A DNA stretch of 63,399 nucleotides, the filler included, from Psammoneis japonica (taxonomy: Eukaryota), in the NCBI GenBank assembly GCA_008632985.1. It is 4 parts of 4 records of this genome, joined end to end, with 100 filler letters (N's around TTAATTAATTAA, not from the genome) between each part and the next. Parts side by side here need not be neighbours in the genome. Positions count along the whole stretch, not along the records: positions 1 to 27,111 come from QPGO01000362.1; 3 more parts are not named here. One strand, given 5' to 3'. Below, one piece after another: positions 2,600 through 24,225 of the stretch. Position numbers and translations under genes: made by a program. The first letter of the stretch is position 1. Every line of letters begins with the position of its first letter. The notes under the pieces are model-generated. The model saw only the letters and a list, made by a program, of their open reading frames with translations. It was not told the origin of the DNA and made no database searches.

Positions 2600-2781
2600 C
2601 AAGCAAATCTGGATGGAGGGCCATGTCATAATTGGTGATTGGTTGAGATGTGTGGATCGAGTGGTGCTGCAGCGACACGCTCACAATCTAATCAGGTTTG
2701 GGTTCGCATTGACAGTGTCACCACTTTCTATTTAGACTTAAGGTGTCGTGCTTGTTCTTTCGTTGCATCGAGATTTATTCG
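2600..2781 (+). repeat. 5' LTR
   Basis: Colinear with 9238-9419; ends form an imperfect inverted repeat (caagcaaatct...agatttattcg). Confidence 0.9.
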
Positions 2782-3241
2782 CTTTGTCAGAGCTAAGACG
2801 AAAAAGACAGAGCGAAATGGTTTCGAGTGCAATTCGTCATGGACGATTGTTTGTTGCGTTGTTTGCATGGAACGTGCAGCTGTAGAAACAGCACTGAACT
2901 GTGCGTGATGCATCAGAATTCGGATTGATGCACACGATGATGCGTCTCGTGTCGCTTGTTGTGATGTCCACAAAAACAGCTTGCAATGGCAACACTCGCA
3001 AAGACAGTCACTGTCCTCACATGTGTGATGGGTGTGAAGGGACTGCGGCATTGGGCGACATGCCCGAGCGTGTGCTCAACAATGTCGGTTGACATGAACG
3101 ACACAGGACTGATCACCCTGATGTCGGGTGGCTGTGTGAACCCGTTGTCACAACACAGAGAAAGTGTGGCCATCATGACCATGCAGACTCACAGCTGCAT
3201 GTTCCCGGTGCGGGACCTTTGCACCCTTTCTCTGTTGCAGG

Positions 3242-4786
3242 ATGGCAGCAGCGGCAGCACCAGCAGCAGCACTTGCAGCGTCAGCCGCGGCAGCTGACGT
3301 TGACGCAGTCTCACAAGTTTGTGGTGTTGCTGACCAGAACGCAAGGGCGAGGTTGGTCTTCTGTGAAGGGTTCACGACTTTGGAAAACATCGCAGTGATG
3401 GAGAGTGATCACGATGTGGAAGACATGGCGCAGAGGGCGTCTCGTCGCATGGTGGCCGACGGACGTGTGACTCTTGGGACCACTCAGATCAAGAACTTGC
3501 AGGCGCCAGCATGGTGGTGCCAGGATTTGCTCAAACGGAATCAGCCATTGGTTGTGGCAGACTTTAATGTGGCAGCTGTGGCTGCAGCCCGGAATGGCAG
3601 GCGCATCGAAAAGGAGCGCACAGATTGGGACGCGTCGGCAAGCGGTCTTGTAAAGTTCAAGCCCGATGACTTCGATGTGTGCAAAGATGCTTTCTTGAAT
3701 CTCTTGGCACAGAAATTTGGCGTGTTGAAAGAACCCCTTCGCTGTGTTGCAAGGACAATGCCAGCTCCGGCTGCATTCACGGATGCTCAACAACAGCGTG
3801 TGCACCAGATGCCATTGAATGGCGCCGCATGTGATGAGGACAACTGCAGCGTTTGCCGCATGTTGAAGGAATGCTTGGTCGACACGGCAGGGTGGGCATG
3901 GATCGAACCGTTTGATGCGACAGAAGACGGACGTGGAGCATTCAACGCATGGGTTGACCATTGCAATGGACAGGGCGAGTTGAGCAAGCGCATCCATCTG
4001 GCTACAGCAACTGTTGAAACCTTGTTTTACAAAAAGGAAGCATCGCTCCCATTCGAAAAGTTCAATGAGAAACTTGCCAGTGCTTTCGCTGCTTTGAACA
4101 AATCACCGGACGACCGCAAATCTGAACGACAGAAAGTTGACATTCTTCTAAAAGGGATCCGAACGGATGACACTCGTCTCATTGCAGCAACGGCTGTCAT
4201 TGGCAGTCAGCACCCTCGTGACTTCGCGGGGGCATGTGCTCATTTCTCATCCGAAGTCTCTCGTTTGCATGCAGGTGCTCAGTTGGAAGCCCGGCATTGC
4301 TCGAAGCGCAAGATTTCTGAAATGAGCCATGGTGGCGGCGGTGGCCGCGGTTTTTATCGAGGTCGCGGTCACGGAGGAAGATTTGGACGTGGGGGTGGAT
4401 GCGGACGTGGTGGTGGCCGTCAAGGCAGAGGTGGCGACCACACTACGATGATCAATGAAGTCGATGCATCCGACCCTGCAAGGAGCTTTAGCGCTCAAGA
4501 ATGGGAAAAGTTGCAGTGTAATGGAGGCATGAGCTGCGTGTTCCAAGCTCGCGAACGAATGGGTCATGGACGCAGTGGTGGCCGTGGGTCTCCCGCAGGT
4601 CGACAAGGACGCGATGGGGGCGGCAGGCATGCAGCTGAAGCCCAAGTCTGTCAAGATGGCCAAGGCCAAACCCAACAACAGGATCAGGAGCAAAGGAGTG
4701 GCAGGCGTGGTCGCGGTGCTGACCGGGATCGCGGTGGACACAATGGACGCGCCTTCGGTCGGGGAGCCTGCAATGGTTCCACCTGA
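3242..4786 (+). CDS. gag: Copia Gag-like protein with RGG-rich C-terminus (mutated)
   Basis: 514-aa ATG-started ORF between the 5' LTR and pol; DGRGAF motif and Gly/Arg-rich tail; only 2 Tyr. Confidence 0.8.
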   Translation: MAAAAAPAAALAASAAAADVDAVSQVCGVADQNARARLVFCEGFTTLENIAVMESDHDVEDMAQRASRRMVADGRVTLGTTQIKNLQAPAWWCQDLLKRNQPLVVADFNVAAVAAARNGRRIEKERTDWDASASGLVKFKPDDFDVCKDAFLNLLAQKFGVLKEPLRCVARTMPAPAAFTDAQQQRVHQMPLNGAACDEDNCSVCRMLKECLVDTAGWAWIEPFDATEDGRGAFNAWVDHCNGQGELSKRIHLATATVETLFYKKEASLPFEKFNEKLASAFAALNKSPDDRKSERQKVDILLKGIRTDDTRLIAATAVIGSQHPRDFAGACAHFSSEVSRLHAGAQLEARHCSKRKISEMSHGGGGGRGFYRGRGHGGRFGRGGGCGRGGGRQGRGGDHTTMINEVDASDPARSFSAQEWEKLQCNGGMSCVFQARERMGHGRSGGRGSPAGRQGRDGGGRHAAEAQVCQDGQGQTQQQDQEQRSGRRGRGADRDRGGHNGRAFGRGACNGST

Positions 4787-7700
4787 CTCCTTGGGGTGGC
4801 AACAGCTGCTGGAGTGTTGGCGCATTTGGCACACTTGTCGTTTTTGCTTGTGTTGCTCTTCTTGCTGTTGACCAAACCCCACCCAATGTCTCGTTTCAAA
4901 GGAAAGGCGACAAAGAGGCACATTGCCGTGACATCAAAACGTGTGATCCGATTGACGAGTTCTGCACAGATGACAAATTTGACGACACCTGGGTTTGTCG
5001 CTTGAAATGAATGTGATGCTCACGCGGACACTTGTTGCGCTGGGGCGAACTGGAAGCTCATGGAGATGACAAATGAAGTGTGCAAGGTGCATCCATTTCT
5101 GGACTCTCATGAGCCGATCAAACAGATTCCTGTGGCACGTTGTTGCACCGCATGGACAGATCCGGAAACGACTCGTGAATGTTCACTGGTTGGTGATCAA
5201 ATGCTCTGGTTTGGGACCGACATGGAACACTCACTTTTGAATCCTAACCAACTCCGTGCGCACAACATGCCCATGCACGACAACCCTTGCGACACCCGAA
5301 ACGGATTTGGCATTGAAGCTGACGAAGCTTTCATCCCTTTCAATGCCATGGGGACAATTGTGTCTTTCAAGTCTCGTGTTCCGACGGATTGGGAAGTGCA
5401 GAACTTGCCGGTCATGCTGTTGACAGGTGACACATGGGATCCAGCACAGATGGACATGGGCTTGCCGGAGCGCACTAGAGAGCAGGCGGAGATGTGTGCC
5501 ATTCGATCATTGACCTCTGGCATGCGACAAGAACAGGTCTCGGAATTGAGGAGCGAGAAGGCAAAGTCCCAAGCAGCACGCTGGGGCGAAGTCGAAATGC
5601 AACTGTCGTCCATGTCCCCCATCTGTCAACTTCAATCGTTTTGCGACAGGCTCATCAGCTCAGTGAACGTGGCTTGCACATGTCGCGACGACGTGGACAA
5701 GAGGCAGAGGGCAGTCAAAGATTTGTGTGGTGAGGATCGGCACTCGAAGGTTGACGCTGAAGAGCTGGCCCAAAAATGGAATGTCGGTTTAGAAATGGCA
5801 AAAGACACTCTCAATGTAACAACTCAGCGCGGTGTACGAACGGCGACCCAGCCGATGTCACGAAGAGTGAGGGTGGATCATCTTGACTTGCATCGGAAGC
5901 GTCTGAAAGGAACATGGTTTGTGGACACTTTGATGTCCAAGGTGAAGTCTTTGCTTGGCAACACGTGTGCCAATGTTTGTGCTCAGGGCAAATTCGTGAA
6001 GGTCGTGCCGATGACCGCCAGGTCGGAGGCAGGTTTGTCTCTTGTTGAATTCACAGACGACGTGGGTGTGCCAGAATGTCTCATGTCGGACGGGGCAGGA
6101 GAGTTCACAGGAAGGAGCACCGAATTTGTGAGACACGCACGATGCATGAGAGTGCAACCAAGAACATCAGAGCAGGGTCGGAAGAACCAGAACCAGGCAG
6201 CGGAGCTCGAAATTGGTTTCTTGGCCAAACGTTGGCGGCTGCGGATGACGAAGAAGAAGGCATCAAAGCGACTGTGGGATTTTGGTCTTGTTTGCGAGTC
6301 GGAATTAGTGTCGTGCATGGCAAGAGGCAGGGACAAGAGGACTGGACATGAAGAGGTCACTGGGCAGACACCAGAGACAGGCGAGCATTTGGATTTTGGT
6401 TTCTGCGATGTGGTGTGGTGGTGGGACAGGCCCAACAAGCCGAGTGCAACTGACGATCCTCGAAGGCTTGGACGGTGGCTTGGCATCTCACACAAAGTTG
6501 GCTCGGACATGTGCCATTGGATCATTGCGGAAAGCGGGAAGATTGTCTCCAAAACATCAGTCGAGCACGTGACACAGGCTGATGTGGTGCAACCGGATGT
6601 TCGCGTTGAGGTCGACAACTTTAATGAGCAGCTGGAGAAGCGATTGGACGATGCCAACTTTGTCTTAAAAGGCGATGAAGCTGTGCCCGCATTCGTGTTG
6701 GATGATCTTGCAATTGATGGCAACCTCGGTGTGGAACATGAGGGCAGCATCACGCCAGAGGACGAGGAATGTGGCAACATGCCATCACCCGACGAGCGAC
6801 CAGATGACGACGACGAGCAGGCAATCGATCAACACCTGGGAATGGAGCTCATGTTTGACATCGGAGCCGACGGCGAGCGATGTGGTGTTGTAACGAAACG
6901 TGCAAGAGGACAAGATGGGCGTCCAATTGGGACTCGGCATCAAAACCCATTGTTTGACACTCGCGAGTGCGAAGTGGAACACACCGACGGAACCACAGAT
7001 GAGCACACAGCCAATGTCATTGCCGAGAACATGTTTGCTCAGGTCGACAGCGAGGGCAACCAGCATTCTATCTTACACGAGATGCAGGACCATGAGAGGA
7101 GTGACAATGCGGTGTCGATTGCTGACGGCACCGTACGAACCGCTGACGGGAAGGAGAAGAAGAAGATCACAACAAAAGGATGGAAGTCATTGGTCGGATG
7201 GAAGGATGGCAGCTCATCTTGGGTCAAACTCAAAGATCTAAAGGACTCCAACCCCATTGAAGTTGCTGAGTGTGCTGTTGCGAACAGGTTGACGGAGGAA
7301 CCTGCTTTTGCTTGGTGGGTCACACATGTCCCACGCAAACGGAATCGCATTGCATCCAAGGTCAAGAAGAAGCACTGGCGCACGACTCACAAGTTTGGGA
7401 CCCGATCACCCAAGTCCACGGAGGACGCTTTGCGGATTGATCAGGAAACGGGGACAGATTGTTGGGCTTGTGCAATCAACAAGGAGATGGCAAAGGCAAA
7501 GGTGGCATGGCACGAGCACGAAGCTGAAACCCCTCAAGTCGTCCAGGAAGGTGAGAGTGCAACTTTGCGTGGTCATCAGGAGATCAGGTGCCACATGGCA
7601 TTCGACATTAAAATGGATTTCACCAGAAAGGCAAGGTTTGTAGCTGGCGGACACACGACAGAGGCCCCGGCATCGATCACTTGCTCTGGCGTGGTTTCCA

Positions 7701-9073
7701 GAGACAGTGTGCGACTTGGATTCTTGTCAGCAGCCTTGAATGGTGTCGATGTTGCAGCGATTGATCTGGAGAATGCTTGTCTCAATGCACCGTGCGCAGA
7801 AAAGACATGGTTTGAAGGCGGAAAGGAATGCGGCGAGCACGAAGGAAAGGCACTTGTTGTTGCTCGGGCGTCACATGGCTTGAAGAGCTCGGGATGCTCT
7901 TGGAGGTCTGCACTGTCATCGGTCTTGCGTGACTTGGGCTTCGAATTGACGAGAGCAGACCCAGATGTCCACTTGTGTGCGGCGACTCGTGAGGATGGGC
8001 ACGAGCATTGTGAAATGCTTTTGGTTTGTGTCAATGATGTGCCAATCATTTCCCATCAAGGGAAGTCCACTGTCACTGCAATGGGTGAACACTGTGCCGT
8101 GAAGCCCGGCAGTGAAGGAGAACCAGAAGTTTGTCTTGGAGCCAACGTTGAGAAGGTTCAGACTCAGGATGGGCACACAATCTGGGCGAGTTCACCGAGG
8201 TCATGTGTCAAATCGGCGATTGAGACTGTGGAAGGCCTGTTGGATGAAGACGGCAATGGAGAGTTTCTGAAGAACAGTGCAAAGGATCCACCACCCCCGA
8301 AGCACAAACCGGAACTGGGCGTGATGGACGAGTTAGGCCCCGACTTGGTGGACAGGCATTTGCAGTTGACAGGGATTTGTCGTTGGGCGATCGAGTTGGG
8401 TCGCATCGATGTCTTGCATGAGGTTTCAATCCTGTCTCAACATCAAGCTAATCCAAGGAAAGGACATCTTGAGGCATTGCATCATGTGTTTGCGTGTGTG
8501 AAGAAACACCAGAACATTGAACGCATCGGATTTGATCCAAAGGAGCCGGTGATTGATGAATCTATTTTCAATTCGAACGCAGACTGGACCGAGTTTTACG
8601 GGGACGTTGAGGAGGAACTGCCGCCACGGGCACCAAAGCCTCGTGGTGATCCGGAAAACATCTGTGCATTTGTTGACGCCAACCATGCAGGGAATGGCGC
8701 GCCAGTGGCATGGTTCAGCAAGCGGCAGAACACGGTGGAATCGGCAATGTTTGGAAGTGAATTGGTTGCGATGCGGATTTGCAAGGAATTGATCGTTGCT
8801 TTGCGTCACAAGCTTCGCATGTTTGGGGTTCCCCTTGAAGGACCGGCAAGTGTCTTTTGTGACAATCACGGTGTTGCAAAGAATGCAAGTGTGCCCGAGT
8901 CGGTTTTGCACAAGAAGCATGATGCCATCAACTGCCATGTTGTGCGAGAAGCGGTCGCAGCGGGAATTGTTCGTGTTGGCAAGGAGGATGCGGAAACGAA
9001 CTTGGCCGATCTACTTACGAAGGTGGTTGCAGGAGAGCGGCGATGGAAGCTTTGCTCGTGTGTTTTTTGGCAA
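4787..9073 (+). pseudogene. pol: Copia Pol (protease, integrase, RT, RNase H), inactivated
   Basis: ECDAHADTCCAG protease motif just after an in-frame TGA (5003-5005); integrase SDGAGEF/EIG; RT RKARFVAGGH with CVND in place of YVDD; RNase H FVDANHAG..FCDN..NLADLLTK with a short in-frame deletion near 8695. The probable original stop (9071-9073) now reads CAA. Confidence 0.92.
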
Positions 9074-9237
9074 TGTCCCGACACCAAGGCCAGGCACCTG
9101 TGGCTCGCGCCCACATGTCGTGGCCTCCCAAGCCAGCATGTCTGGAGGTTTAATTTGGGTTCTTGTGGTTTGCCTCTCTGTGAGAGGATGTCACATGTTC
9201 AGACGAATTGGCACTGTCATTGCCGTTTCGCGGGGAC

Positions 9238-9419
9238 CGAGCAAATCTGGATGGAGGGCTGTGTCACAATTGGTGATTGGTCAAGATGTGTGGATCGAGT
9301 GGTGCTGCAGCGACACGCTCACAATCTAATCAGGTTTAGGTTCACATTGACAGTGTCACTGCTTTCTGTTTAGACTTAAGGTGTCGTGCTTGTTCTTTCG
9401 TTGCATCGAGATTTATTCA
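9238..9419 (+). repeat. 3' LTR
   Basis: Colinear with 2600-2781 (cgagcaaatct...agatttattca). Confidence 0.9.
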
Positions 9420-9567
9420 GTGCGGCAGTTCCACAACAACTCTTGAACTTGAACTCCGCAAAACAGAATTTGGATTTTCGATTTCCGATGCCAGAACCCA
9501 CAGAAGAACCAGATGCGACAGTTTGTCATTGATGCAGCTTCATCGCATTCATTCGCTTGTTGAAATC

Positions 9568-11037
9568 ATGGCAGAGGCTGCAGCATCAGCTGCCGCAAAT
9601 TTGGTGGCGTCAAGAGCCGTTGACGCTGCAAAACAATCGATTCTCGCACAAAACGTGGATCAATGCAATGAAGATGACGTAAAGGCAGCAATTCTCAGCG
9701 AACTCGAGCAAATCAAGGAAGACATGGATGTCCTTCGTAGTGCAGACTTTCGTGCGGCTCGCGATGAGCTCCAACATTGGCATGCATCAAGTGAACCCAT
9801 TGAGAGTGAACTTCAAAAGGAGCGTCTTCGGTCCGCTCGTCACAGTTCCGTGCGCGCCTTTAACACTGTCCCGGATCCCCAGGATAAGATCTCGGCAGCC
9901 TTTTTCGTGATTTTCTGTAATTGTCATCTCGTGGCTCTTGGTGACGACAAGAATGCAGAGCCAAATTGGCTTGCTGGAAAGCGAGAAGCGCAGAGTCTGC
10001 TACGACAGTATTTCTTCCAGTCTTGTGTCACGCTTAACTACGCAGTCTATGACCTTGTTCCTCGCAGTGAGAACGGCAACCACCCCACATTTCCAGAGGA
10101 CGCGGAGAAAGCTGCACTCCAGCTGCTTTCGTCCAAAACGTTGCAAATGGGTGTGGTCAGCCCAAAAATATCCCATTTGCTTTCGGAGCCTCTGTTGTGG
10201 TCAACTCTAAGAGGGCACACGGATTGGATCTTTTGCTGCACTGTGTTTGCCAATGACACTCGAGCCCTGAGCGTAAGTGACGACCAAACGCTCAAAGTGT
10301 GGGACTTGTCCAATGGAAACGAACTGCTTACACTCAAAGGGCACACGGATAGGGTCTATTGCTGCACTGTGTTTGCCAATGGTACTCGAGCCCTGAGCGG
10401 AAGTGACGACCAAACGCTCAAAGTTTGGGACTTGTCCAATGGAAACGAACTGTTTACACTCAAAGGGCACAGGGATTGTGTCGGATGCTGCACTGTGTTT
10501 GCCAATGACACTCGAGCCCTGAGCGTAAGTGGTGACCGAACGCTCAAAGTGTGGGACTTGTCCAATGGAAACGAAGTGTTGACACTCTATGGGCATGCGG
10601 GTTGGGTCGGATGCTGCACTGTGTTTGCCAATGACACTCGAGCCCTGAGCGCAAGTGACGACCAAACGCTCAAAGTTTGGGATTTGTCCAATGGAAACGA
10701 ACTGCTTACACTCAAAGGGCACACAGATTATGTCAGATGCTGCACTGTGTTTGCCAATGACACTCGAGCCCTGAGTGGAAGTGACGACCTGACGCTCAAA
10801 GTGTGGGATTTGTCCAATGGAAACGAACTGTTTACACTCAAAGGGCACATGGATTATGTCAGATGTTGCACTGTGTTTGCCAATGACACTCGGGCCCTGA
10901 GCGCAAGTGGCGACAAGACGCTCAAAGTGTGGGCGTTGCCACTCACGATGACGAAAGAAAAGTCGCGTACGCTGTGGCCAAAGAGTGGAAGGACCGATTG
11001 TTGTTCGTTCTTTTCTGCTGTAATGCTGATACGTTGA
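9568..11037 (+). CDS. WD40-repeat protein with an unassigned N-terminal domain and six near-identical repeats
   Basis: Uninterrupted ORF from ATG 9568; repeats of LKGH.D.V.CCTVFANDTRALS.SDDQTLKVWDL. Confidence 0.85.
   Translation: MAEAAASAAANLVASRAVDAAKQSILAQNVDQCNEDDVKAAILSELEQIKEDMDVLRSADFRAARDELQHWHASSEPIESELQKERLRSARHSSVRAFNTVPDPQDKISAAFFVIFCNCHLVALGDDKNAEPNWLAGKREAQSLLRQYFFQSCVTLNYAVYDLVPRSENGNHPTFPEDAEKAALQLLSSKTLQMGVVSPKISHLLSEPLLWSTLRGHTDWIFCCTVFANDTRALSVSDDQTLKVWDLSNGNELLTLKGHTDRVYCCTVFANGTRALSGSDDQTLKVWDLSNGNELFTLKGHRDCVGCCTVFANDTRALSVSGDRTLKVWDLSNGNEVLTLYGHAGWVGCCTVFANDTRALSASDDQTLKVWDLSNGNELLTLKGHTDYVRCCTVFANDTRALSGSDDLTLKVWDLSNGNELFTLKGHMDYVRCCTVFANDTRALSASGDKTLKVWALPLTMTKEKSRTLWPKSGRTDCCSFFSAVMLIR
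10204..10935 (+). repeat. Tandem 126-bp WD40-coding repeat, ~6 units
   Basis: Unit starts at 10204, 10330, 10456, 10582, 10708 and 10834. Confidence 0.95.
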
Positions 11038-11739
11038 TGTTGCGCTTATTGAGCATTTTGTAATCGGGCTTCAGCATCCCTGTCAAGTTCTGCGTTCTTT
11101 CGTCTTTTCGAACACATCTATGGCACATATTGTTGGACATGATGATCGATGACAAGAGCTTTATTGACGTAAAAGTACACGAAACAATTGAATAACGTAG
11201 ATTGCACTCTATATTTTAAACAACGCCAACATGCGAGTCGCTCCGTTCATGATGTAAGCTCTTGCTTCCGCGTACGAACAATGCTGCGAAGTTTCGATTC
11301 AGTCTCAATCGGAACGAAGCTACCGTCGAGAAAAACCAACACCGCTTTCTCAGTCACAAGTGCAAGAATAATCCCCCCCCTTGCAACGTCATTACGCACC
11401 CTCGCAAGCAAAGAAGCAATCACTTTGAGCCAACCGTCGCCGGCCCAAACAAAACCACCAATTCTAGAGAAAACCGCTTTTGTGCGACAAGATAATATAC
11501 TTAGAGCTCGTCTTTGTCAGCCTTGGCCAAAGTGGACTTGACGGACTTCATCAATCGGAGTCCAGCGGCCTTGACAGCCTCCATCTTGGCCTCCTTGTCG
11601 GCATGCTTGTACCAGGCAAACACGTACAGGACTCCTATGAACAACTACTCGAGGAGGAAAAGAGTTACTCGTAGGCGCTGTTGAGCGGGAAGATGACCAG
11701 CCACAGGACGAGCAAGAAGCGTCCGTAAAAGAAGAGATT

Positions 11740-12592
11740 GACAGGGAAAGATGTCGGCTGGTCCTCCGGCGAATGAGACGCCTCGTTTGTTTTGCAGCGA
11801 TTGGACGATTTCTCTCGGGATACAATGTAAGTGAAGTCCGCATATAGCGCCGAAAGATATGTGGTCTCTCGTGACTGACTTGTTCTCCTACAGACTGGGG
11901 TCATATCAGGGGCACCGCTGCCTCTAAAGCGAGTCTTTCAGCTATCCCCTATAGGAGAGGAAGTGATTGTATTTGCCACGATATTCTTTGCTTTTACAGC
12001 TTCGGCTCTTGAAGAAAAGAACGAGTTTGTAGGCCGACGCTTCACCATCATGACTGCTGCTGCTGTTTTCACCCTGGAAGCTCTTGTTATCTTGTCAACG
12101 CAGAACTACACAATGGTCGTCATGGGAGAAGCTCTTCTCGGTATCGGAATTTGAGTCGAATCTCTTACTTCTTCTCCTTTGTATAATTGCAGAGCTGTCC
12201 AAACCGTCTCTTCGCGGCATGATATTTTCGGTCTACGATTTCGTAGTATGCTTTGGTCATTTTTCGGTAAGTATATGACGACACGGCGAGCTCAAAGCTC
12301 TATGGGCCCCACTTTTTCTCTAATTCTATATTCTGACGCTTTTGTAGCTGGAATTTTTGACGGTATTGCTGGCTCCTTCGATGGAGGCTGGCTCTGTATG
12401 TTTGGCTTCGCAGTCATCCCGGGGTCAATCATGTTCATCGGATTCGCTGGTCCACCAGAGTCTCCGGCATGGCTGTTGCACGCGGGTCGAGAAACTGAGG
12501 CAAAAAAGTTTTTTTTCTTGGGGACGCGAAACCCATATAGGTGCCTTACTCAAGTCATTCTCCCTGAACAAGACTCGGCCAAAGCCAATTGA
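11740..12592 (+). pseudogene. MFS sugar porter (myo-inositol transporter-like) pseudogene, N-terminal half
   Basis: Motifs FAAIG.FLSGY/TGVISGA, GRRFTI, IAELSKPSLRG, GW..MFG, PESPAWL; two gtaagt...ag introns (~11827 and ~12267); internal stop and frameshifts. Confidence 0.75.
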
Positions 12593-12976
12593 ATAGCCAC
12601 AGTTATGAGGTCAAAGATGCGCAAATGTAACATCGCGTTCATGCATGCAATCCAATCTGCGGCTGGGAACTTAAGCTGGTCAACAAGACGACTCACGCTC
12701 CGAAGTACCTGATAGGAGGCACCGTACTCATACCCGAGCCGTTTTCGATCCGGATGAAAGTTCTGGCCTTCAACAAAGATTGCAGCTTGTTCTTGGGAAG
12801 GAACATTGGAAAGGCTTGCCGTCGATGCGGCCGGCTACACTCGAGCATTCGCGTGCCGTATTTTTCCATCTTCATCCCACAGTTCGCAGGTGGTGCCAGC
12901 CTTGCAAAGTCGCAAAGTCACAGCCTCAGCGAACGGAGCTATCACAAGTGCTGTGTGGATCCGGAAGTATAGAATC

Positions 12977-14981
12977 TCAACATCTTGCATTAGATGCCGT
13001 AGACCATAGTGCGTGAATGTAGCCTGATGCTGGAAACAAGTTCTGTCCCCGCATAATGTGGTGGCGTAGTGAACTCCGGGGTTGCCGCGACAAGTCGTAG
13101 ACGATCTTTGGCGTTTCCGTAGCATGGAATAGTTCGAACTCTTCCCAGGAAGGGACACGGAAGTTCACGCGTGGATCAAATAGGTTCGGATATCGCTCGG
13201 TGAAGTGGGGACGCCCTGCGCTTAGCGTTACCTCGGAACCTGCTGCACGCAACTCCCCCAACGTCTGTAGGGTTTTTAACGGGTCGTCAAGCACAGCGGG
13301 CTCCCCACGCACAATGAGTCCAATTCTCCCCAAATCCTTCCGTGTCCGTTTGATCTGGCTCAACATCCCACTGGCAGGACCGATCTCAACAACAGTAGAA
13401 TTTTTTGGCAGCGAATCGATGACCTCGTTGAAGTACACCGGCTGGCAAATGTTTTCGACCAGGTATTGAGACGAGAAGACGGTTTGGCGACACGTCGATT
13501 TCCAAGACGACGGAAGCGGCTTCGTAGTCACTTCTCCAAACTCGTTTGTCAGCCATTGCTTGAACACTTTCAGGTAGATGCCGTGGTATGCAATGCTATA
13601 AGTGGGTAATTTTCGGATGAATATGTTCTCGTCCTTCTTCTTCAAATAGTCGATTAGTTTCTGCACCTCCGATGCCGGTCCGCTGACCGTTTGACCGTTT
13701 GGAGCATTGAAGCAAGCAATGCGTGTCTGTAGAAGCCCGAGATCAGCAATAATTCCTGAGATCCGGTCAGCAGAATCTCCGACAACAATCATTAACCCAT
13801 TCATAGAAAAAGACCAATAGCATCAGGGTTGGGCGGTGCGTCCACCGGCGTTCGCTTGACAAAAAGTCTACCGGGAAACGAGAAGGGATGTGTCGCTGAA
13901 ATGTCACTTTTGATCTCACGACCTCCCCCATCCATTGTTTCCATCTCGTAGTCGTGCCCACCTCTTGGCGGGCAATCAAAAACATCCAGCCGAGAACCGG
14001 AGCTAACCTGGGAGACAACCAATTTAGTCCGGACAGCTGCGAAACCCAACACCTCTTCCTCTGTAGCGCATCCTGGAGAACAGAACACGCTAGCTCCCCT
14101 ACCCAATGACCAAGAAATAAGTCAGGGTGAACTCCAGCATCGCGGAGAATCGCCAAGAGGCCAAGCTGAAAACTGACAATTCCAATGGTGCAATTAACTT
14201 CCGTCATCCATTGCGTACCGTCTTCGTAAAGGCGGGTGAGTGGAAGGAAGCGGCTTCGTGGTCGCTTCTCCAAACTCGTTTGTCAGCCATTGCTTGAACA
14301 CTTTCAGGTAGATGCTGTGGTATGCAATGCTATCAGTAGGTAATTTTTGGATGAATATGTTCTCGCCCTTCTACTTCAAATAGCCGATTAGTTTCTGCAC
14401 CTCCGATGCCGGTCCGCTGACCGCTTGACCGTTTAGAGCATTGAAGCAAGCAATGCGTGTCTGTAGAAGCCCGAGAGCAGTAATAGCGCCCGAGGCCCGT
14501 TCAGTAGAATCTCTGAAAACAATCATTATCCCATTCATTGAAAAAGACCCAATAGCATCAGGGTTGGGCGGTGCGCCCCGGGCGTTCGATTGACAAAAAG
14601 TCTACCGGGACCGGGGCACGAGAAGGGATCTGTCGCTGAAATGTCACTTTTGATCTCATGGCCTCCCCCGTCCATTGTTTCCATCTCGTAGTCGTGCCCG
14701 CCTCTTGGCTGACAATCAAAAACATCCAGCCGAGAACCGGAGCTGATCTGGGAGACAACCAATTTAGTCCGGACAGCAGCGAAACCCAACACCTCTTCCT
14801 CTGTAGCGCATCCCGCGAGAACAGAACACGCTAGCTCCCCTACCCAATGACCAAGGCATAATTCAGGGTGAACTCCAGCATCGCGGAGAATCGCCAAGAG
14901 GCCAAGCTGAAAACTGACAATTCCAATGGCTCAATTAACTTTCGTCATCCGTTGCGTACCGTCTTTGCAAAGGCGGGTGAG
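12977..14981 (-). pseudogene. Type I FAS/PKS fragment: acyltransferase (partly duplicated) and start of dehydratase
   Basis: FQLGLLAILRDAGVHPD.FLGHWVGELAC (GHSxG with Ser>Trp), TVSGP, IAYHG, YLVENICQPVYF, VVEIGP; DH motif LRHHIMRGQNLFPASGY; frameshifts; no KS domain seen. Confidence 0.8.
13512..14981. repeat. Tandem duplication of ~730 bp (13512-14240 and 14246-14981)
   Basis: Both copies run from ggaagcggcttcgt to aaggcgggtgag with scattered substitutions and indels. Confidence 0.9.
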
Positions 14982-15195
14982 CAGATACCAGTTTTGTCTT
15001 CTCAAACAGAGCTGGAAGAAGAAACTGGAAAGGGGGGTATGAAGAGAAGAAGGACGAGGAGTCACACTCAGATAATTCGAGTCCCAATCCGTGCAAATAT
15101 AATCTACGGTACCCCTTCTCGTTCACAGCGAACACTTTCTGCTTTGTTTTAAAGGTTTCAAAGAGTTTTTCCAGTAGCTATTTTGAGTGCCATCA

Positions 15196-16476
15196 TTATA
15201 CAAGGTCTAGGAGCATTGTTTCACTCGAGACAAATTCAGCCGGCGGTGTTTGATGAAACAGACGCACGGCATCTTTGACTTTGAAGACTGAATTCTCTTC
15301 CTGTAGACAGCTTGCTGAACCACACGCCAATCCAAAAGTAAAACCGGATACCATGTGACGAACGCTTGGAGAAGAAATATCCGACTCGGGTACCACGCCC
15401 TTTTCAAGCGTCTCCCGCACCTTTTCCTCGACGCACGCCTCCTTTTCGTCGTTGCTTAGTTCCTTGTAGAATTTCCAAGCTGCAAGTGTACCTGCAGCGA
15501 CAGTATCACCAGCTCCAATGGGATACAAAAGGTTACCATCGCCTTGTCCTTTCAAGTCTGAAATGGAGATTCTATAAATTCCCATATGTAATTTGTCTGA
15601 CGCTTCTTGTTCCAAGGTGACGAAATGAGCTGGGTGCTTTCCGTCTGTAATGGCAAAGCCAGCAAGTGCTTCCGAAGCTCTCGGGAATTTCTTTAGAAAG
15701 CCCTTGGTAGCATCCACCAACTCGATCGAAGTCACACCATTGGCTTCACTGCTGCTCTTTTGGACTCCAGCAAGGCGGCAAAGTTCGGAAGCATTAACTT
15801 TTAAAATGGTAACGCATGGACTCTCCGCAATGGCATTCAGCAGCTGTTCAAGTCCGTTCACCGTGTCGATAACACACTGCAAGTCGTTGCTGGTTGATCC
15901 GCCCTGTTGTTGTACGCTTTTATATATTTGAGCATAGAGGTCGTCGGAACACCCCGGGGGCATACTTCCCATAAAGCAGAGTGCTTCAACTCCAGATTCA
16001 GCTTCGAGCTTGTTCAACAACTCTTCTATTTCATCACTGGTTGTTTCTCCGCTAGGCTCGACAAGCTCTGTCGAAGCATCTGTCGCCACCACGGTTGTGC
16101 AGGTTCTCATGTGGCTTGCAGTGCGAACCGTAAGGGACATTGCGTCTGCGCCCAAGCGATCCTGCAATAGCTCATGAACATTGTCTCCCTCGTAACCGCT
16201 CCCAACAAACTGAGCAACCTTGATTGGATTGCGATAGTGCAGGCAAGACAATGCGATTGCTACATCCTGGCCCTTCCCACCAACACCCACTTGAATGGAG
16301 GACGCTCGATGGACATCTCCAGGGACAAGAAGAGTTTCTTGTGGCAATACAAATCGTTTTTGCAGCGCTCCATTCAATCCAACAATCACTGTAGACGATG
16401 AACCAGTTTTAACCTTACTGGATGACGACAACGACATGGCGGAGGTGATCCAGAAGGTCAGCAGGAACAATCGCAT
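15196..16476 (-). CDS. PfkB/ribokinase-family sugar kinase (1-phosphofructokinase/tagatose-6-phosphate kinase-like) with a signal-peptide-like N-terminus
   Basis: Intact 426-aa ORF; GGKGQDVA, RTCTT, GSMPPG, LKVNASE and PIGAGD signatures. Confidence 0.9.
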   Translation of the reverse strand: MRLFLLTFWITSAMSLSSSSKVKTGSSSTVIVGLNGALQKRFVLPQETLLVPGDVHRASSIQVGVGGKGQDVAIALSCLHYRNPIKVAQFVGSGYEGDNVHELLQDRLGADAMSLTVRTASHMRTCTTVVATDASTELVEPSGETTSDEIEELLNKLEAESGVEALCFMGSMPPGCSDDLYAQIYKSVQQQGGSTSNDLQCVIDTVNGLEQLLNAIAESPCVTILKVNASELCRLAGVQKSSSEANGVTSIELVDATKGFLKKFPRASEALAGFAITDGKHPAHFVTLEQEASDKLHMGIYRISISDLKGQGDGNLLYPIGAGDTVAAGTLAAWKFYKELSNDEKEACVEEKVRETLEKGVVPESDISSPSVRHMVSGFTFGLACGSASCLQEENSVFKVKDAVRLFHQTPPAEFVSSETMLLDLV

Positions 16477-16786
16477 CAGATTTGTTGCTTGAGACTACAG
16501 CACTAGCTAGTTGAGTGGTAAATCCACAGGTTGACTGAAAAATGCATCGTCATGGTGAGCAATGGGCAAGGGGGGTCGGCAACTCGGCAAAACATCAACG
16601 GGATAATATTCTTAATTAATACAGCTACGAAGCAATTTCAATATACTAGATTCTGACGTCATCCTCATTTTTCTCCCCCCTTCCAATCCGCGTCCATCAC
16701 CATCAACGCACGACAAGCGGCGGTGGGTGGAAACAGTGCGATCGAACGATGACGGGCCTAAACCCGTGCTCGTGTTTCATAATAAG

Positions 16787-16885
16787 AGTACTCTACTAGC
16801 TCGAGTAGTAGCTACTCTAGTAGCTAGCTCCTAGCTAGCTAGTAGCTACTCTAGTAGTTCCTAGCTACCAGTAGTAGATACCATA
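16787..16885. repeat. TAG/CTA-rich simple sequence tract
   Basis: ctctactagctcgagtagtagctactctagtagctagctcctagctagctagtagc... in intergenic DNA. Confidence 0.8.
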
Positions 16886-16972
16886 CTGCAGTATCGAGTC
16901 AATGTAGGCGAGAAAACTAAGATCCAACACAACTTTTGGCAGTACCGGTATTTGTGTGCTTGATAGACGAAA

Positions 16973-19900
16973 TTAGTTGGTGTTAATCCAAGACAACCAT
17001 TGTGCCGTATCAGGATGTGGCTTGTCGTTCTCGGGCCCCGAGGACAGACCTGAACCCGAAGAGTTCAAATCAAGCGAACGGTCATCCACATCCGAAAGAG
17101 CAGATTCGTCAATTTCCGAAATATCGTCATTACCGTTCTCCTTTGTGGCATCAATTTTATCAGAGTCGGGTGAAGGTGGTGTGCCATCGCCGTTCGACAG
17201 GGACAAGTTCATTCCAACCAATGATTGCGATTTGTAGAGTTCCATTTCTTCCGAGTATCGAGCTTGGTCTGCTGCAGCAATTCTTCATAAAATTCCGTTT
17301 CCCCGTCATCTTGTGCTTTCTCCCACATGCGCAACAGGACGACAGTTGTAACATTTTTGAGATCTTCGTCCTTCACCTTGCCGGAAGCTTTCATTGCCTT
17401 GCTGACTTCACGCCTCTTTTCTGAACAAAAGAAAGCGTATGCTGACTTGGCGGCTTCTGGTGGTTTCTGGACGGCTCGCTTGCTGCTATCACTTTGAATT
17501 TGAAGCAGCCTCCAGGCGTCTTCCACGGGCATGTCCTCTGGCTTGTCTTGATATTCGTCAGGAAGCTTTACGGTTTTCTTTCTCCAACACAGATATTTTA
17601 CAGCAAACTTCCCGCTCCTAACAAGAATCGCGTAGCCATTTCTCATTCCCAGCTCTGGAAAATCTCCTGCCGTGTTCTGTTCATAGACAGAAACGGATCG
17701 AGTGTCAACCTATTGCGTTCATCGCCAAAAAACAAAGGTGGCGAACTTACCAGAATCTGCATTGATGATTCTCTCGGTTACAATCCTCTCGGCGGTCTCT
17801 GGATCAATTGTTTGAGCATCGCCATCCTCTTTGTCAAGGCGAACATAAATGTGATCGTAGAGCAAGTAAGGCCCATACGGACCGATGCCCGCAACGACTT
17901 TCATCTTGTTAACTCTACATACGGTTCGAGGTAGGTTAACGTACCCTACTGCATCGTCCAGCGTGAGGCCAATAGCTTGGCAAAACGTAGACTCCGAATC
18001 ACGGTCTTGCTCCACCTTCATTTCACTGTTGCGATCCAATTCTCCAAAGTGAGTCGGTAACGAATGAGTTGTAGTTTTCTTCTCGCCAGTCTTTCCCCAT
18101 TGAAGATAAACGCCAAACATGCCCACTTTGAAACGGATCTCTCTTCCATCCTTTGGGTGATTCCCAACTAGCACTCCCTCTTCTTCTCGGGCTGCAATAA
18201 GTGCGCGCAACGCTATTGTGTCGACGGTCGAAATATCGGCCGCCATACTGGGAGGTATGACGACTGTAGGTTTCCTAGACTTGGACACACCGGGTTGGGA
18301 CATCTTTTGTGCGTACGACCTGAAGGTCCAACAAACAAGCCAATTTTGTCTTCTTCCACATCATTGTTCAGGAAGCATTCTGGCAGCGTAGCCATGCGAG
18401 CATCGTCTGGGTTGACTTCTTCCTCGATTCTTGCCACTTGTGCCGCGAACCCATCCTCTCCGGCGTAGAAGGAGTCGAGGAAAGAACACGCCATCCTGTG
18501 TCACTACCTGTTCCACTTGCAACTTCATCAAGCCTTCGATGCATTCCTGCGTTACTTCAGGGCTGAGGTATGTGGCGTAGTGTCTCTCCAACATTGAGCA
18601 AAGTACAAAGGCTGGTAGAGAAGGGACCAAGTCATCACAGGAGTCTTGACCTAAAAGGAAAAAAAAAACGGAAGCAACCAGATCAGTCCAAGAGTATTCA
18701 AAAAGAGCGACTCAACAAGAACAGGTGATTACCAACCTTTTTCGGTATCTCTGACTGTACCCGGATTATCTTTCTCCGGTTTGGTTGTTCGTTACCTTCT
18801 TGCTCGTTCTTTCCGATGCTTTGGAGTTTCCTACGAATCCCTGAAGGCGAAGATTCTGAATGATGCGTGTATATGCACGAGGACGACAGCCTAGTTTGTC
18901 GTGGAGCTCACAGACAAAGGCTGCCTCAGTGAATCGAGATGGAGGCTGTGTCGTGTGGCACACCGTGTGCATATCTGAACACTCAAGGGCTTGGCCGGTA
19001 ACAAGAGTAGGCAGAATTGAATCTGATTCCATCCTCGCCCAAGCTAAAGTGTAACCAGGCTGCAAAATTGAGCTTCCTTTTGTAAGAAACAAGCCTACAA
19101 CATCATCTTTTGAGGACTTGCCCGTGATCTCTACAGATGTCTCACTGATCACCGCCAGAGGCATACGTGACGCCAGAGTTCGGAGATAGATAAGTTCGTA
19201 CAGCTTCATGGCCGGTGCAGAATCGAAAACGGAAAGCTGTTCGGGTCGCAAGAACCCACCATCTGGCTGGACGGCCGGTCGAATGGCTTCTTGTACGTCT
19301 TTCGCAATTTTCGGTTTTATGTCACACCCTTTGCGAGGAGGTGATACCATGTTTGGTCCGTACTTCTCGGCTACAAGCGTTTGTATGGCAGAATGAGCCT
19401 CTTCACTCATTAGCGTGCTGTCGGTGTACACGAAAGAGATACAGCCTGCTTCATAGAGCATCTCTGCTGTTTCCATGGTTTCATGTATGGACATACCCAG
19501 CCGTTCGTAGGACTGCTGCAGAAGTGTCACTGTCGTAAAGGGCTTGGGCGGGGCAATCTTCTTATCCTTCTGTTGCACGGAGGTGACGGCCCAACATGAA
19601 ATGATTCTTAAAGCACAACAATATATCAGAACGACAAAAACAAGTGAGACTTGAGGTAGGCGATACGGGACGTTTGCGACACACAAGGCAAGGGTCACTC
19701 ACGGATCTCGAAGGATTGGAGAACCGTCACCAATTCCAAATGTAGCAAGAAGCTCGTCCGCACGATCTGACGTTAGCTGTTGTCGTTCGGTGTCTATCGC
19801 TGACCCATTGCTATCAGTCTCAGTTGCAAATTTCTCGTCATTAAACGCAACCATGATTGCTTCCACGTCACGATCTTGTCCGAACGATGCCTTCACGATC

Positions 19901-20530
19901 CAGAACTTGGCAGTCTTGTAGGCCAGCGTTCTCGTTCTCGTCGTACAAGGAACTCCATGGCAACAGTCTCCAGCTGTCCGGTCGATATTCCTGGAGCGAT
20001 CTTTTCCTCGATAAGTGGTGTCATTGTTGATTCTACCAATCGGTTGTAGATTTTCTGCGCTATGTCAACATGGGCCAGATTTCGGTCCACTTCGCGTGGG
20101 TTTTCAATGGCCTCGCGAATGGCATCTGGTGTGATTTCAACCAGGATGACTCTTTCATGTGGAGTGGCTGACGGAAGAAGGTGAGATAAATGCCAAGCCA
20201 GCGTCTCGCCCTCGCGATCGGTATTTGTTGCTAATAGCACTTTTTGCGCATCGCGAGCTAGTGATCGTAGCTCTTTCAAGACTGGTTTCTTTCCCGGAAG
20301 TATTTCGTATGCTGGTTTGTACTCATTCTGGACATCTACACCCACAATCGGCTGCTCTTCGGTCTTATTGTGCGACTCGTAAGCAAGATCCCTCACATCT
20401 CCATTTGTTGCCTTCACAACGTAATCGTGGCCAAGATCTTTTCCTTCGACGTATTCTTCAAGAAAGTCGAATACGAGTTCAGCCTTTTCATCCGATTCAA
20501 CAACAACCAAATGATACGGTCGTCCGCCTG
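16973..20530 (-). pseudogene. topA: Degenerate bacterial-type (type IA) DNA topoisomerase I with C-terminal repeats and HMG box
   Basis: TOPRIM motifs LVVVES and ATNTDREGETLAWHL; PPKPFTT.TL.Q; LYEAGCISFVYTDS in place of LYE.G.ITY.RTDS; EAIRP; HTTQPPSRFTEA; GPYGPY repeat; KSAYAFFCSEKR HMG box. Intron at ~19607-19702 and several frameshifts (e.g. ~19925). Confidence 0.8.
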
Positions 20531-22327
20531 TGGGAATGATACCACGTTCCTCGTCATTTTCCTCCTTGCTCTTGACCAGCACACAACATGACCCGCATTT
20601 TAAGCCTGCGTCATCGTCTTCAATCCGTACAGTGATTAGTGCGGCCGTTAAACTACTCAGCGTCCCGGCTAGAAAACACGCCGCCAGCGCAGCTACAGCA
20701 TCATTACCAGCAAACTCTCCTTGATCTTCACCGACGTAAGTGTACAGCAAACCACTCCCAAGAGTACCAAACAGGCGCCCCAGGGCGTTGCTCATGTAGT
20801 AGAACCCCACGCTCACTGCAATTTTATCTGTACTGGCATACTTGACCACCAGATAGGAGTGAATGGAAGAATTTACGGCAAAAATAATGGCAAAGATCAC
20901 AATCCCAGTCACCATCCAAGCAATCATACCACCTCGATCGTAGTCTTCAAAAGTCGACGAGAAGGCCAACACAAGCGTCATTATCAATGTGGGAATACAG
21001 TTTATGACACCCCAGAGGACCTCCGTCCACTTATTTGGCGGTCTTTTGGCAAGTCCCAAAAACAGATTAAAGATGAGGAGATGTAATGCAAGTGGCATTC
21101 AAGACAAGCAATCGCACATCATCTTTTCTCTCAACAGCACACTCACGTTTGGTCAAGTGGACCAGTAACCAGCTGTGGCGTCCAACTTTGAACCTGACCA
21201 TAAAGAATGATGTATCCTCCAAGAAAGGCTCCAACTACCACTCGATCCAAACCAACACCACCACATCCTCCACCCGTATTGATATTTTGACAAACCATAA
21301 ATTCGTTATTGCATTCCGCACCGGGATTGCAATCACTATTCACGTCACAAGTGTCCGTTCCCAATCCTTCACACGAGGGACTTCGTAAAAAGAAGGGAAG
21401 TGGCACTTCAAACCAAAAGTCTCGAGACGCAAACAGAAACAAACGCGCCAAGCTCAAAATGTTCAAATTCCGATTGTTCAGGTTGAAAATGTCGGTCCAA
21501 GATGCATTCTTTTTCTTTGCCGTGCCCAAATTCTTATCCAATCCAATAATGGCCCACGGCATGGCAAGCGCTACTAATCCCATCATGACGGACAGGGCTA
21601 AATAATAGGAAACCTGCAATAGCGCAGAGCCGAGAAAGTAACCAACGCCTTTTAGTGAATTCTTCCAACCGGTAATCAGCGATACGAGCTTGAAGAGTTT
21701 GGTATCTTGCTCTTCGGGTGTGACCAGCTTTGTGACTGTCTTGCCTCCCAATTTTGTTAAATCTTTTGCAATGCCTGCAAACATTTGAGCAATTGTAACG
21801 TAAACGATCGAGGTGCCCTTTGACCAGTCTTCTTGCCATCCAAACAGCAGTCTGCAAAACATCACAAAGTTAGAACGGGTTGAAACCATGAAAACGACTC
21901 GCACTTGTCGTTCGACTTACCCATAGGCAAGCAATTGCAGTGACAGTCCCATGACAAGCGTGACTTTGATACCCCATTTTGCACCCATGACACCGGCAGC
22001 AAGATTGGTAAACACGCCAGCCAACTCGTACAGCGTAAACATGATTGCCACCTCAAAAGCGGAAAAGTTGTTGTTGTACGCATGCAACAGGACAATCATT
22101 CGAATCGCACCATCGGTAACCGTAAAGAGCAAATAGGATGTTGAGATAATCACAAAGGGTCTCAACGCTTCCGAACGAGCCGCATCCATAAAGCTCTGCT
22201 GCACCTCTACTGGTGCCGGGGCCACTTTGTCGTCCGTGATGCTGATTTCATCCTCTTCGTCAATGGGCTGCTCTTCTTCCTTGGATTCTTCTACTTGCTC
22301 ACGTCCCTTTTCAGTTACAGTTTCCAT
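20531..22327 (-). CDS. arsJ: ArsJ-like organoarsenical efflux MFS transporter (3 exons), continuous in frame with the TOPRIM domain
   Basis: FTVTDGAIRM, YELAGVFTNL, GIAKDLTK, TGWKNSLKGVGYFLG, ARLFLFASRDFWF and FAVNSSIHSYL..VGFYYMSNALGRL match ArsJ family motifs. Frame-preserving GT-AG introns at 21852-21920 and 21043-21146. Confidence 0.85.
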
Positions 22328-22613
22328 ATTATCTTCGCTTTGCAAAATGCTTTAGCCGTTTACTCGTCACTTGCTGTTGGACTTTTTGGAAGTGCAACAA
22401 GCAAGAGAGAGTGAATAAATTGGTGATCCTTCGTGAAGCTGACGCCGCATTGCCTGCACGAATCTAACGAATCTGGCCAAAAACGGTTCCGAATTTCGGC
22501 CATCATTATATTTGTATACAATTTTTAATGGTATTAATTACATAAACTATGATAGTAAAACCGGTAAAACGTCCGTTGAAAAGTGGCGGGGAACACAGGG
22601 CCTCTCATCCTAA

Positions 22614-23749
22614 TGGGGCAACGTACTTTCAAAAATCCGGTTCCCAGTGGAATTCTACTTACGTAGAACTAGTACCAGCATCTACGAGCAGAACACAACA
22701 ACATTACACTCATCACGACTACAACACGGATGTCTATCATGTCGGGTATGTCGACGTTAAGGGTGGTCGGTTGCTACTTTTTTTAGCTCGAATTCGGCCG
22801 AATAGCTCGTGTTTTGCATGATTTTTCCTGAATTTCACCGTGCTTCACCGTGGTGAAAACAACAAGCCATAAGTCTGTGACGGAGGTGGTCCGTCTACCA
22901 ACTCTCATTTATTTTATGTTTGTTATGTAACAAAGATTGTATATACATGAAAAAGTTGGTAGACGGCAAACTACGTTTTTGAGAAATATCGATGATTGTC
23001 ATCATCGTCGTGCTTCGGTCGCGGTGCTGATGGTTCTCGTTTTCGTGCGCGATCGGGTGTGACTATGAATAATTCTTGTATTCAAAAATAAACACTATAA
23101 AAAACCTTATTCAAATGCAACGGTAATTTTAGGATAAACGCGGGGATGACCCCCCTTAACGCTCTTCTTGCATATAAAAAACACATCATGCGAATTCGAT
23201 GGGATACAGGATCTTTGCAAAATCAGGGCAAAAATTGTTCCTTCGTGCTTCACCGTGCTAAAAACCCTGTGATAATCCTCCATAATGAGTGAAAATCCAA
23301 CTTTTCGTCAAAATCTCTTGTCGCGTGCTCATTCAGTGCTTCATCGATGCAAACAAACGAGAAAACTCCAAATACACTCCACAAAAAGTGAAAATCAACA
23401 GTCCCACCGCGGCCGAAAACTCTACGTGCTTTCAGTACCAAGTTGTACGTGTCAAAAATCAGTTGTCACCAATCGCTCAATCAGCTCCCAAAATAACTCG
23501 ATCATTGTCATCCAACATTTTTACTACACTTATTATCATATAAGTTGTCGTCTCGGTGCACCAGAACCCCCCAGTTAGCTGTTGTTGTCGCGTGCGGCCA
23601 TCGCCGATGTCGCGGCGTCGTTGCCGTGATGTTTGTGTGTGTCGGAGTGAATTCAAATCGATCACTGCGAATTTCGCAGTACATTCTACATACGTAAATT
23701 TTGTGTAGATTAGTACGGGAACCGGATTTTTGAAAAGTACGTTGCCCCA
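22614..23749. mobile_element. Non-autonomous PIF/Harbinger-like element (MITE)
   Basis: ~32-bp TIRs (tggggcaacgtactttcaaaaatccggttccc and its reverse complement at 23717-23749) flanked by TAA on both sides; no transposase. Confidence 0.8.
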
Positions 23750-23760
23750 TAAGCCATGTG

Positions 23761-24225
23761 CACTAGTACAAAAATCACGTAGAAATTTTACGTAGAAAAA
23801 ATTATAAAAATTAGGGTTTGGGCCGATTTTTTTCTCGTGCTTCTACCGTGCTTCTCTGCTCCACCGACGCCTCAAGGAATCGTTTTCCCCTGAAACCATT
23901 GACACTTTACATGATGACTTTTACACAAGTGACACGATTCTGTGCGTGAACACTTCAAAATTCCATTTTCAGAAATTCAATCAACACTTCACTACGGTCC
24001 TGCCACGGCAAACATTTTCCAATGATGGAACTTTGCCGAACGGTGGACATCGTCGTGTTTGTCATCAAAAAGCAAGTGCGCAAAGTGTCAACCGTTGTGA
24101 CTGAAATCGATTCCTTGAGGTCGTGGCCCATTTTTCGCAAAGCACGGGAAAAGCACGACGAACAAAACATTCTGCGCGAATTTTCTACGTGAGTTTTTGC
24201 ACCAGAAATCGGCCCAAACCCTGTT
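23761..24225. repeat. Inverted-repeat-bearing transposon end remnant
   Basis: 23763-23796 is inverted at 24171-24205; agggtttgggccgattt (23813) is inverted at 24206; begins with CACTA. Confidence 0.45.

Follow-up and report, generated by a model that had tools for sequence, protein, structure and literature searches.

TA Loss after Insertion of a Diatom Retrotransposon

We studied a 63,399-nucleotide stretch of the Psammoneis japonica genome (GenBank assembly GCA_008632985.1; four parts of four records joined end to end, hereafter the window) in which a 6,820-bp retrotransposon at 2600–9419 is bounded by 182-bp direct long terminal repeats (LTRs) and a 4-bp target-site duplication. The sites where copies of this element now disagree most were originally TA, and TA has been lost there by transitions alone, independently in each copy. 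Very probably this is due to a host process that acts after insertion, on chromosomal DNA in silenced domains, and changes TpA to TpG or CpA.

The two LTRs of the window (2600–2781 and 9238–9419) differ at 12 positions, all of which fall in pyrimidine–purine (YR) steps, with no mismatch elsewhere. The initial annotation had pointed to this concentration and quoted six sites, all of which are present; given as 5'/3' LTR, these are 2622–23 CA/TG, 2629 TA/CA, 2644–45 TG/CA, 2699–2700 TG/TA, 2722–23 CA/TG, and 2729–30 TA/TG. Its proposal of a TA ancestor holds for the nine mismatches at these six sites (three CA/TG, two TA/TG, and one TA/CA pair); the three others, which the annotation had not listed, are CG/CA pairs at 2601, 2706, and 2781. 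A quarter of the differences of this LTR pair are thus ordinary CG decay, a second process that is ~11-fold slower in the same DNA. Nor is the YR concentration due to chance: in 12 LTR pairs, the 30 TA-class columns account for 107 differences and the 17 CG-class columns for 31, with another 30 spread over the 139 remaining columns.

The ancestral state is given by three independent lines of evidence: tallies of family LTRs, LTRs that were spared, and Pol homologs from outside the family. The family was sampled from 41 LTR matches in the genome, 30 of which were used as loci (11 were left out). At the six discordant sites these 30 LTRs (180 cells) read TA in 50 cells, CA in 67, TG in 63, and CG in none, which bears out the proposed TA ancestor and disposes of the annotation's reservation that the CA/TG pairs could also come from CG. 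True CG sites in the same LTRs keep CG as the majority (e.g., 22 of 30 at 2705). Sixteen element regions were also taken and 15 aligned (L045 has a nested insertion and was dropped); counts refer to 13 full copies, since two members of an 88% subfamily (L043 and L044) were set aside. The 339 variable TA-class sites of these copies contain 561 TA, 1,824 CA, 1,956 TG, and 29 CG cells, and the 467 CG-class sites contain 4,980 CG, 504 CA, 515 TG, and no TA among 5,999 cells, the two classes separating into two modes. Loss amounts to 87% of TA cells, with CA and TG produced equally, versus 17% of CG cells. TA-class columns hold 55% of all pairwise differences and CG-class columns 31%; transversions at TA-class columns make up 0.3%. 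The 13 copies are 91.7%–94.2% identical in all pairs, i.e., about equidistant, as expected if near-identical copies decayed separately.

The outside homologs agree. Tyr occupies 23 Pol positions in 80% or more of 120 outside homologs; at these, the copy in the window shows nine His, 13 Cys, and a single Tyr, and it retains 35 of 39 conserved Arg positions. Codons at the 23 Tyr positions begin, over the 13 copies, with TG in 150 cases, CA in 118, TA in 28, CG in one, and another dinucleotide in two. Only one Tyr occurs in the first 1,335 residues of the window's pol, compared to a homolog median of 3.5%.

Timing and Chromosomal Targeting

Both LTRs of an element are made identical at reverse transcription. 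Four LTRs that adjoin TA-normal DNA retain 14, 15, 13, and 12 of 15 TA-class sites, while their twins retain 3, 6, 4, and 5. This asymmetry between twins means that TA loss followed integration, and the annotation's claim to that effect is upheld. One target-site duplication has likewise been split, its two copies now being TCAT and TTGT.

The ratio of observed to expected TA (o/e) is 0.12 in the element, 0.60 in a gene block at 11038–24000, and 0.00–0.20 in 1-kb bins from 24 kb on. Six of the 30 element ends have escaped, each of them abutting TA-normal DNA, and protection fades ~190 bp into the element, at the inner edge of the LTR. Five of the six lie 0–121 bp from the 5' end of a 391- to 494-codon frame that points away from the element; the sixth has merely a 132-codon frame alongside. 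The four spared main-family LTRs also retain 8/8 CG sites, a state seen in 7/26 other LTRs. CG retention in LTRs spared TA loss indicates that CG decay and TA loss occur in one and the same domain, which we infer to be CpG-methylated silent chromatin. Tandem duplicates within the gene block (91%–95% identity, 13509–14981) retain TA, so duplication alone is not the trigger, and TA loss follows chromosomal position rather than copy number.

Single-copy DNA is affected as well. The flank at 9420–9999, which includes the upstream region and start of a WD40 open reading frame (ORF), has no TA in 9420–9679 and five TA in 580 bp. A contig from run X1 that covers this flank reads TG where the window has CA (9527–28) and CA where it has TG (9530–31), which suggests that two versions of the locus lost the same TA steps separately; run X1, which differs from the window elsewhere too, may represent another allele or isolate. 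A search for paralogs that could serve as an outgroup, either to the WD40 N-terminus or to the 3' flank, found none.

TA-normal DNA flanks none of the 15 elements on both sides and six of the 15 on one side (flanks of L031–L046). The opposite flank is often CG-poor also, hence older. In the window, the block left of the element (1–2599) is of this older kind by its dinucleotide counts, with both TA (o/e 0.03) and CG depleted. Insertion by this family may take place within or at old silent blocks, in many cases on an edge next to a gene start.

Mutational Fingerprint

The per-strand hazard is 1.03 at TA. In the same DNA it exceeds that of A>G at non-TA sites (0.0069) ~150-fold, that of G>A at non-CG sites (0.0017) ~590-fold, and that of CG decay 11-fold. 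The A>G hazard varies with the base 3' of the A (C 1.49, T 1.82, A 0.63, G 0.65), and an A 5' of the T approximately doubles it; with the A as reference, this gives a T-A-pyrimidine motif that a 5' A strengthens. Background A>G shows the same 3'-pyrimidine bias, so the mutator probably leaks onto other adenines. Background mutability of an A that follows A, C, or G is 0.0065, 0.0049, and 0.0053, respectively. A T two bases upstream protects TA generally (34%–37% kept). Five TA sites have been kept in all copies, among them 8597–8598, and one of the five sits in an otherwise sensitive TTAC behind a T run.

Each copy carries 131–153 CA and 131–167 TG products, interleaved. No positive concordance of strand was seen between sites 3–7,000 bp apart; it is present at 2 bp only. 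A burst or lesion-segregation model, with its long-range strand coordination, was rejected on this ground, and the random interleaving of CA and TG at distances of at least 3 bp argues for slow, site-by-site accumulation. The concordance at 2 bp concerns TATA: 213 of 306 doubly changed cells read TGTG or CACA (z = 7.4 against permutation), and at strict sites 144 of 196 are same-strand. Pre-existing TG-TA has become TGCA in 324/495 cases (65%) and CA-TA has become CATG in 308/532 (58%). Measured against this stepwise expectation, which runs the other way (p about 2e-19), the same-strand excess implies that adjacent TA steps frequently changed jointly on one strand. Flanking context was rejected as an explanation for the concordance, since it predicts the opposite.

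Proposed Mechanism and Alternatives

Under the explanation that we favor, a young Ty1/copia family would have inserted as near-identical copies, and a host process in silenced domains would then have converted TpA to TpG or CpA (A:T to G:C), either strand being equally likely, mostly one site at a time and over many cell divisions, to ~87% loss. The lesion would be made by an enzyme. Adenine deamination to hypoxanthine by a TadA/ADAT-type deaminase would be the likeliest chemistry within this explanation, an evenly balanced proposition that we favor as the simplest route to pure A>G; thymine modification would be considerably less likely, the remaining chemistries less likely again, and error-prone repair least likely of all. 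Elements would be killed by missense changes, Tyr to His or Cys foremost. TA>TG/CA cannot create a stop codon, so long frames survive in dead copies.

The closest competitor is a thymine-centered chemistry, to which we give a limited though real chance: the T of TpA would be modified in silent chromatin to a 5-hydroxymethyl- or 5-formyluracil-like base that miscodes as C, with the motif read as purine-T-A. 5-Hydroxymethyluracil occurs in dinoflagellates, and 5-formyluracil miscodes. The sequence cannot tell which base of the pair bears the lesion, and tandem marked bases miscopied together could explain the TATA coupling. The 150-fold preference for a self-complementary dinucleotide would also resemble that of a mark-writing enzyme such as a CpG methyltransferase. 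A search of the genome for TET/JBP gave no match, which tells weakly against this chemistry as the search controls were silent too, and a literature search linked the modified base to dinoflagellates only and not to diatom elements. An unlikely alternative is error-prone patch repair, in which T:G mismatches from 5-methylcytosine deamination recruit a low-fidelity polymerase that mutates nearby A:T pairs, much as polymerase eta mutates WA motifs in antibody genes. This would account for the shared domains and shared escaped LTRs of TA loss and CG decay. It fits poorly because AA is not favored, an A preceded by A having no higher mutability than one preceded by C or G, and because transversions at TA-class columns are so rare (0.3% of differences); moreover, strand coordination does not extend beyond 2 bp, and TA is lost 11 times faster than the CG whose decay supposedly triggers the repair.

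That a modified base was misread at TA steps in sequencing or assembly is improbable: a run X1 contig matches a TA-poor interval (25849–26598; 750 bp, TA o/e 0.12) with no substitutions, two inverted-repeat arms agree in almost every outcome across 2.6 kb (three TA-type differences, the others mostly at CG), and two environmental contigs carry the same signature. Run X1, which departs from the window in many parts of the unique DNA, is not a clean same-individual control. Change before integration, by ADAR-like editing of element RNA or by reverse-transcriptase error on the cDNA, is very improbable. ADAR does favor a 5' U, according to the part of PMC10661471 that was available. Its hot spot UAG is a cold context here, CA and TG are about equal and interleaved within each copy, twin LTRs are sharply unlike, a target-site duplication has been split, and the single-copy flank and a host eIF4A gene are affected too. 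Least credible of all, with next to no probability, is an origin of the CA/TG pairs from CG ancestors by ordinary 5-methylcytosine deamination. CG ancestry does hold for 3/12 differences in the window pair and ~30% among copies; at the six sites it is refuted by the absence of CG from all 180 cells, and CG occurs in just 1/299 cells at the 23 conserved Tyr codons, with two separate modes of sites.

Several points weigh against our explanation of TA loss by a host process. The site classes were defined from the same alignment in which they were counted, so a site with one and the same change throughout the copies goes undetected. TA loss and CG loss per copy are weakly correlated (Spearman 0.39, p = 0.18, n = 13). 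In the window itself, the 3' LTR is mutated although 150 bp separate it from the WD40 ORF's first Met, so a neighboring gene start is not always protective. The deaminases of the genome look like an ordinary set by motif and family (Pfam profile search). TA loss could be a by-product of a chromatin mark rather than defense. Engineered TadA prefers TA over GA only ~3–4-fold (24.5% vs 6.3%), with little 3' effect, in the available part of PMC8065034.

Candidate enzymes were sought in the genome, which has nine matches to PF00383 and five to PF14437; these we take to be of dCMP deaminase, TadA, ADAT2, RibD, and guanine-deaminase types. No chromatin-reader domain was found in the four deaminase frames scanned, intron-split parts not being followed. 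PF00145 has 27 genome matches, and no link between them and TA loss was found. One locus (L058, G000:C79:87318–88790) encodes a fusion of a zinc deaminase with a 2OG-Fe(II) dioxygenase. Guanine deaminase and thymine dioxygenase are among its best relatives of solved structure; as a lineage-specific enzyme it was rejected, the fusion being widespread in diatoms, and its function is probably base salvage. Several copies of a cytosine-methyltransferase gene (L073–L075; G000:C301 and C297) lie in TA-depleted DNA, are nearly Tyr-free, and in some cases contain stops. They are possibly carried by a mobile element.

Comparison with Known Systems

In the literature searched, this signature has been described just for viral inserts of one unrelated alga, Bigelowiella natans; its near saturation in diatom retrotransposons adds another major lineage and another class of target. 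The accessible part of the B. natans report (10.64898/2026.01.13.699255) describes TpA>TpG/CpA changes that arise de novo in two viral inserts ~1,000-fold above background, in some lines only, and Mettrop et al. there propose an ADAT2-type deaminase or homolog. So far as that part goes, the two systems share TpA>TpG and TpA>CpA transitions on both strands, in B. natans within integrated DNA of nucleocytoplasmic large DNA viruses (NCLDV) as well as virophages, and a targeting of foreign-derived regions that spares normal genes, with some leakage here into the flank and the eIF4A gene. They differ in host and target (a rhizarian with viral inserts there; a diatom, i.e., a stramenopile, with LTR retrotransposons and whole repeat blocks here), in extent (TA o/e 0.45 in the NCLDV region versus 0.12 here, near saturation), and in what is observed, de novo changes there and fixed differences among copies here. 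The available part of that source reports neither a preference for certain flanking bases, nor coupled changes at TATA, nor LTRs that escape beside genes, as are seen here.

Repeat-induced point mutation (RIP) of Neurospora and other fungi is also a hypermutation by transitions at specific dinucleotides; it ruins transposons once they have inserted and spills over into flanking DNA, and in all these respects the process seen here is like it. RIP is triggered by sequence duplication itself, and its same-strand changes run along the repeat. By C:G>T:A transitions it makes TA from CA/TG, whereas here TA is destroyed and CG-class sites read TA in 0/5,999 cells. Here tandem duplicates are spared, LTRs, the most repeated part of the element with 41 matches in the genome, can escape, and single-copy flank is mutated, and strand concordance is confined to 2 bp, with none at 3–7,000 bp. 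TA loss as a form of RIP was rejected on direction, trigger, and strand pattern.

TadA-derived adenine base editors and ADAR resemble the process in making A>G changes with a 5' T/U preference, and in the available part of PMC8065034 TAC is called the preferred motif for ABE7.10. The TA preference of the TadA editors is a few-fold in that source, versus ~150-fold here. ADAR differs in its RNA substrate and in its preference for UAG, a context that is cold here.

We offer tentatively, as an idea somewhat short of probable, that a chromatin-guided enzyme converting A:T to G:C at chromosomal TpA is common to diatoms and chlorarachniophytes, whether it was inherited or arose by convergence. Such an enzyme would be a natural adenine editor of double-stranded DNA for genome defense, a chemical mirror of RIP that reads silent chromatin rather than homology and is on in some lineages only. 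Any candidate must reproduce the T-A-pyrimidine motif, same-strand double changes at TATA only, and the ~190-bp boundary in gene-adjacent elements. If a natural TA-specific A:T>G:C DNA editor is at work, it would be of interest to the fields of genome defense and base editing.

Distribution beyond This Genome

For six multi-copy families on long contigs of other assemblies (64 of 159 members used), Tyr>Cys/His was found in just 2/1,852 cells, with Arg>Cys/His/Gln/Trp present. Of 120 homolog representatives, 106 have no conserved Tyr as Cys or His, and five have 3–8. A comparison with metagenomic loci, confined to the best 80 of 527, yielded two with the signature: L135 and L140 have TA o/e of 0.30 and 0.25, compared to a median of 0.69, and carry His or Cys at 5/5 and 4/5 conserved Tyr positions, compared to 13/1,419 in the remaining loci. 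L140 and the element of the window share 66% DNA identity. The signature of these two loci, next to families that are free of it, indicates that the process has a patchy distribution and occurs in one further host or more. No literature report of a TA-erasing process in diatoms was found, in a search that covered few subscription papers.

The process also bears on the dating of elements. Some 85% of the differences among copies are at TA- or CG-class sites, and the window LTR pair has no other difference, so ages based on LTR identity would be inflated by an estimated ten-fold or so. Identity-based dating has given "more ancient" LTR peaks in araphid diatoms (10.1101/2025.10.24.684338), and the part of that source available makes no mention of dinucleotides or hypermutation.

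Anatomy of the Element

Judged from its sequence, the element is a CoDi-like Ty1/copia retrotransposon of a diatom. An RVT_2 reverse transcriptase behind an integrase, direct LTRs, and a target-site duplication are all present, the position of the integrase being taken from motifs read by eye and a weak match in a homolog; the nearest named homologs of pol are from the diatom Fragilaria crotonensis. The target-site duplication reads GTGC at 2596–2599 and at 9420–9423. Among the 13 main-family copies, the 4-bp duplication is exact in nine, differs by transitions only in three, and is absent in one. The 5' LTR (2600–2781, plus strand) retains 5/15 TA-class and 8/8 internal CG-class sites, and the 3' LTR (9238–9419, plus strand) 4/15 and 6/8. 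Behind the 5' LTR, a primer-binding-site-like stretch (2782–2795, plus strand), conserved behind family 5' LTRs, resembles the complement of initiator tRNA-Met. A gag-like ORF of 535 codons from stop to stop (3179–4786, plus strand) has no Pfam match and is probably gag by its position. The pol ORF (5006–9373, plus strand) has protease-, integrase-, reverse transcriptase-, and RNase H-like parts in copia order. RVT_2 is matched at pol residues 870–1016 in a Pfam profile search, and the protease, integrase, and RNase H motifs were read by eye, with a weak rve_3 match in homolog P0061. The RNase H part carries a short deletion, and the pol frame extends into the 3' LTR.

In the available part of the CoDi survey (PMC2806351, Maumus et al. 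2009), elements are 5.2–8.1 kb long with LTRs of 153–844 bp, and CpG methylation of diatom elements is reported. The 6.8-kb length, 182-bp LTR, copia reverse transcriptase, and two ORFs found here agree with those ranges and that type. The LTR ends differ: they are CG…CG throughout the family (2600–2601 and 9418–9419 in the window; L001–L030), in contrast to TG…CA in 23 of the 26 CoDi families, three being without it.

Other Features of the Window

An eIF4A-I-like host gene at 24515–25549 (minus strand) lies just inside the TA-poor block. It has Cys or His at five of eight conserved Tyr positions, and Arg has been changed to Cys, His, or Gln, helicase motif VI included. The next best match in the assembly is an eIF4A-III-like gene at 54%, and the named matches of the gene, among the matches listed, are diatoms. 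A contig from run X2, whose contigs skip intron-sized stretches, covers the gene with 50 letters differing, and is possibly an intact expressed allele.

The inverted-repeat arms (33233–36464 and 39815–43128) are 94%–97% identical and both TA-free, and their differences are mostly at CG, which implies that they were duplicated after TA was exhausted and provides a relative clock. The WD40 frame beside the element (9340–11037, plus strand) has six 126-bp repeats of ~90% identity, a single-copy N-terminus, and a TA-poor start. TTAATTAATTAA borders the assembly gaps at 27112–27211, 47312–47412, and 51532–51632 and is likely a technical spacer. A second copia reverse transcriptase fragment lies in TA-poor DNA at 50523–51455 (minus strand), and a 23-bp satellite at 53040–57500 contains essentially no TA in ~4 kb of DNA of 33%–40% GC.

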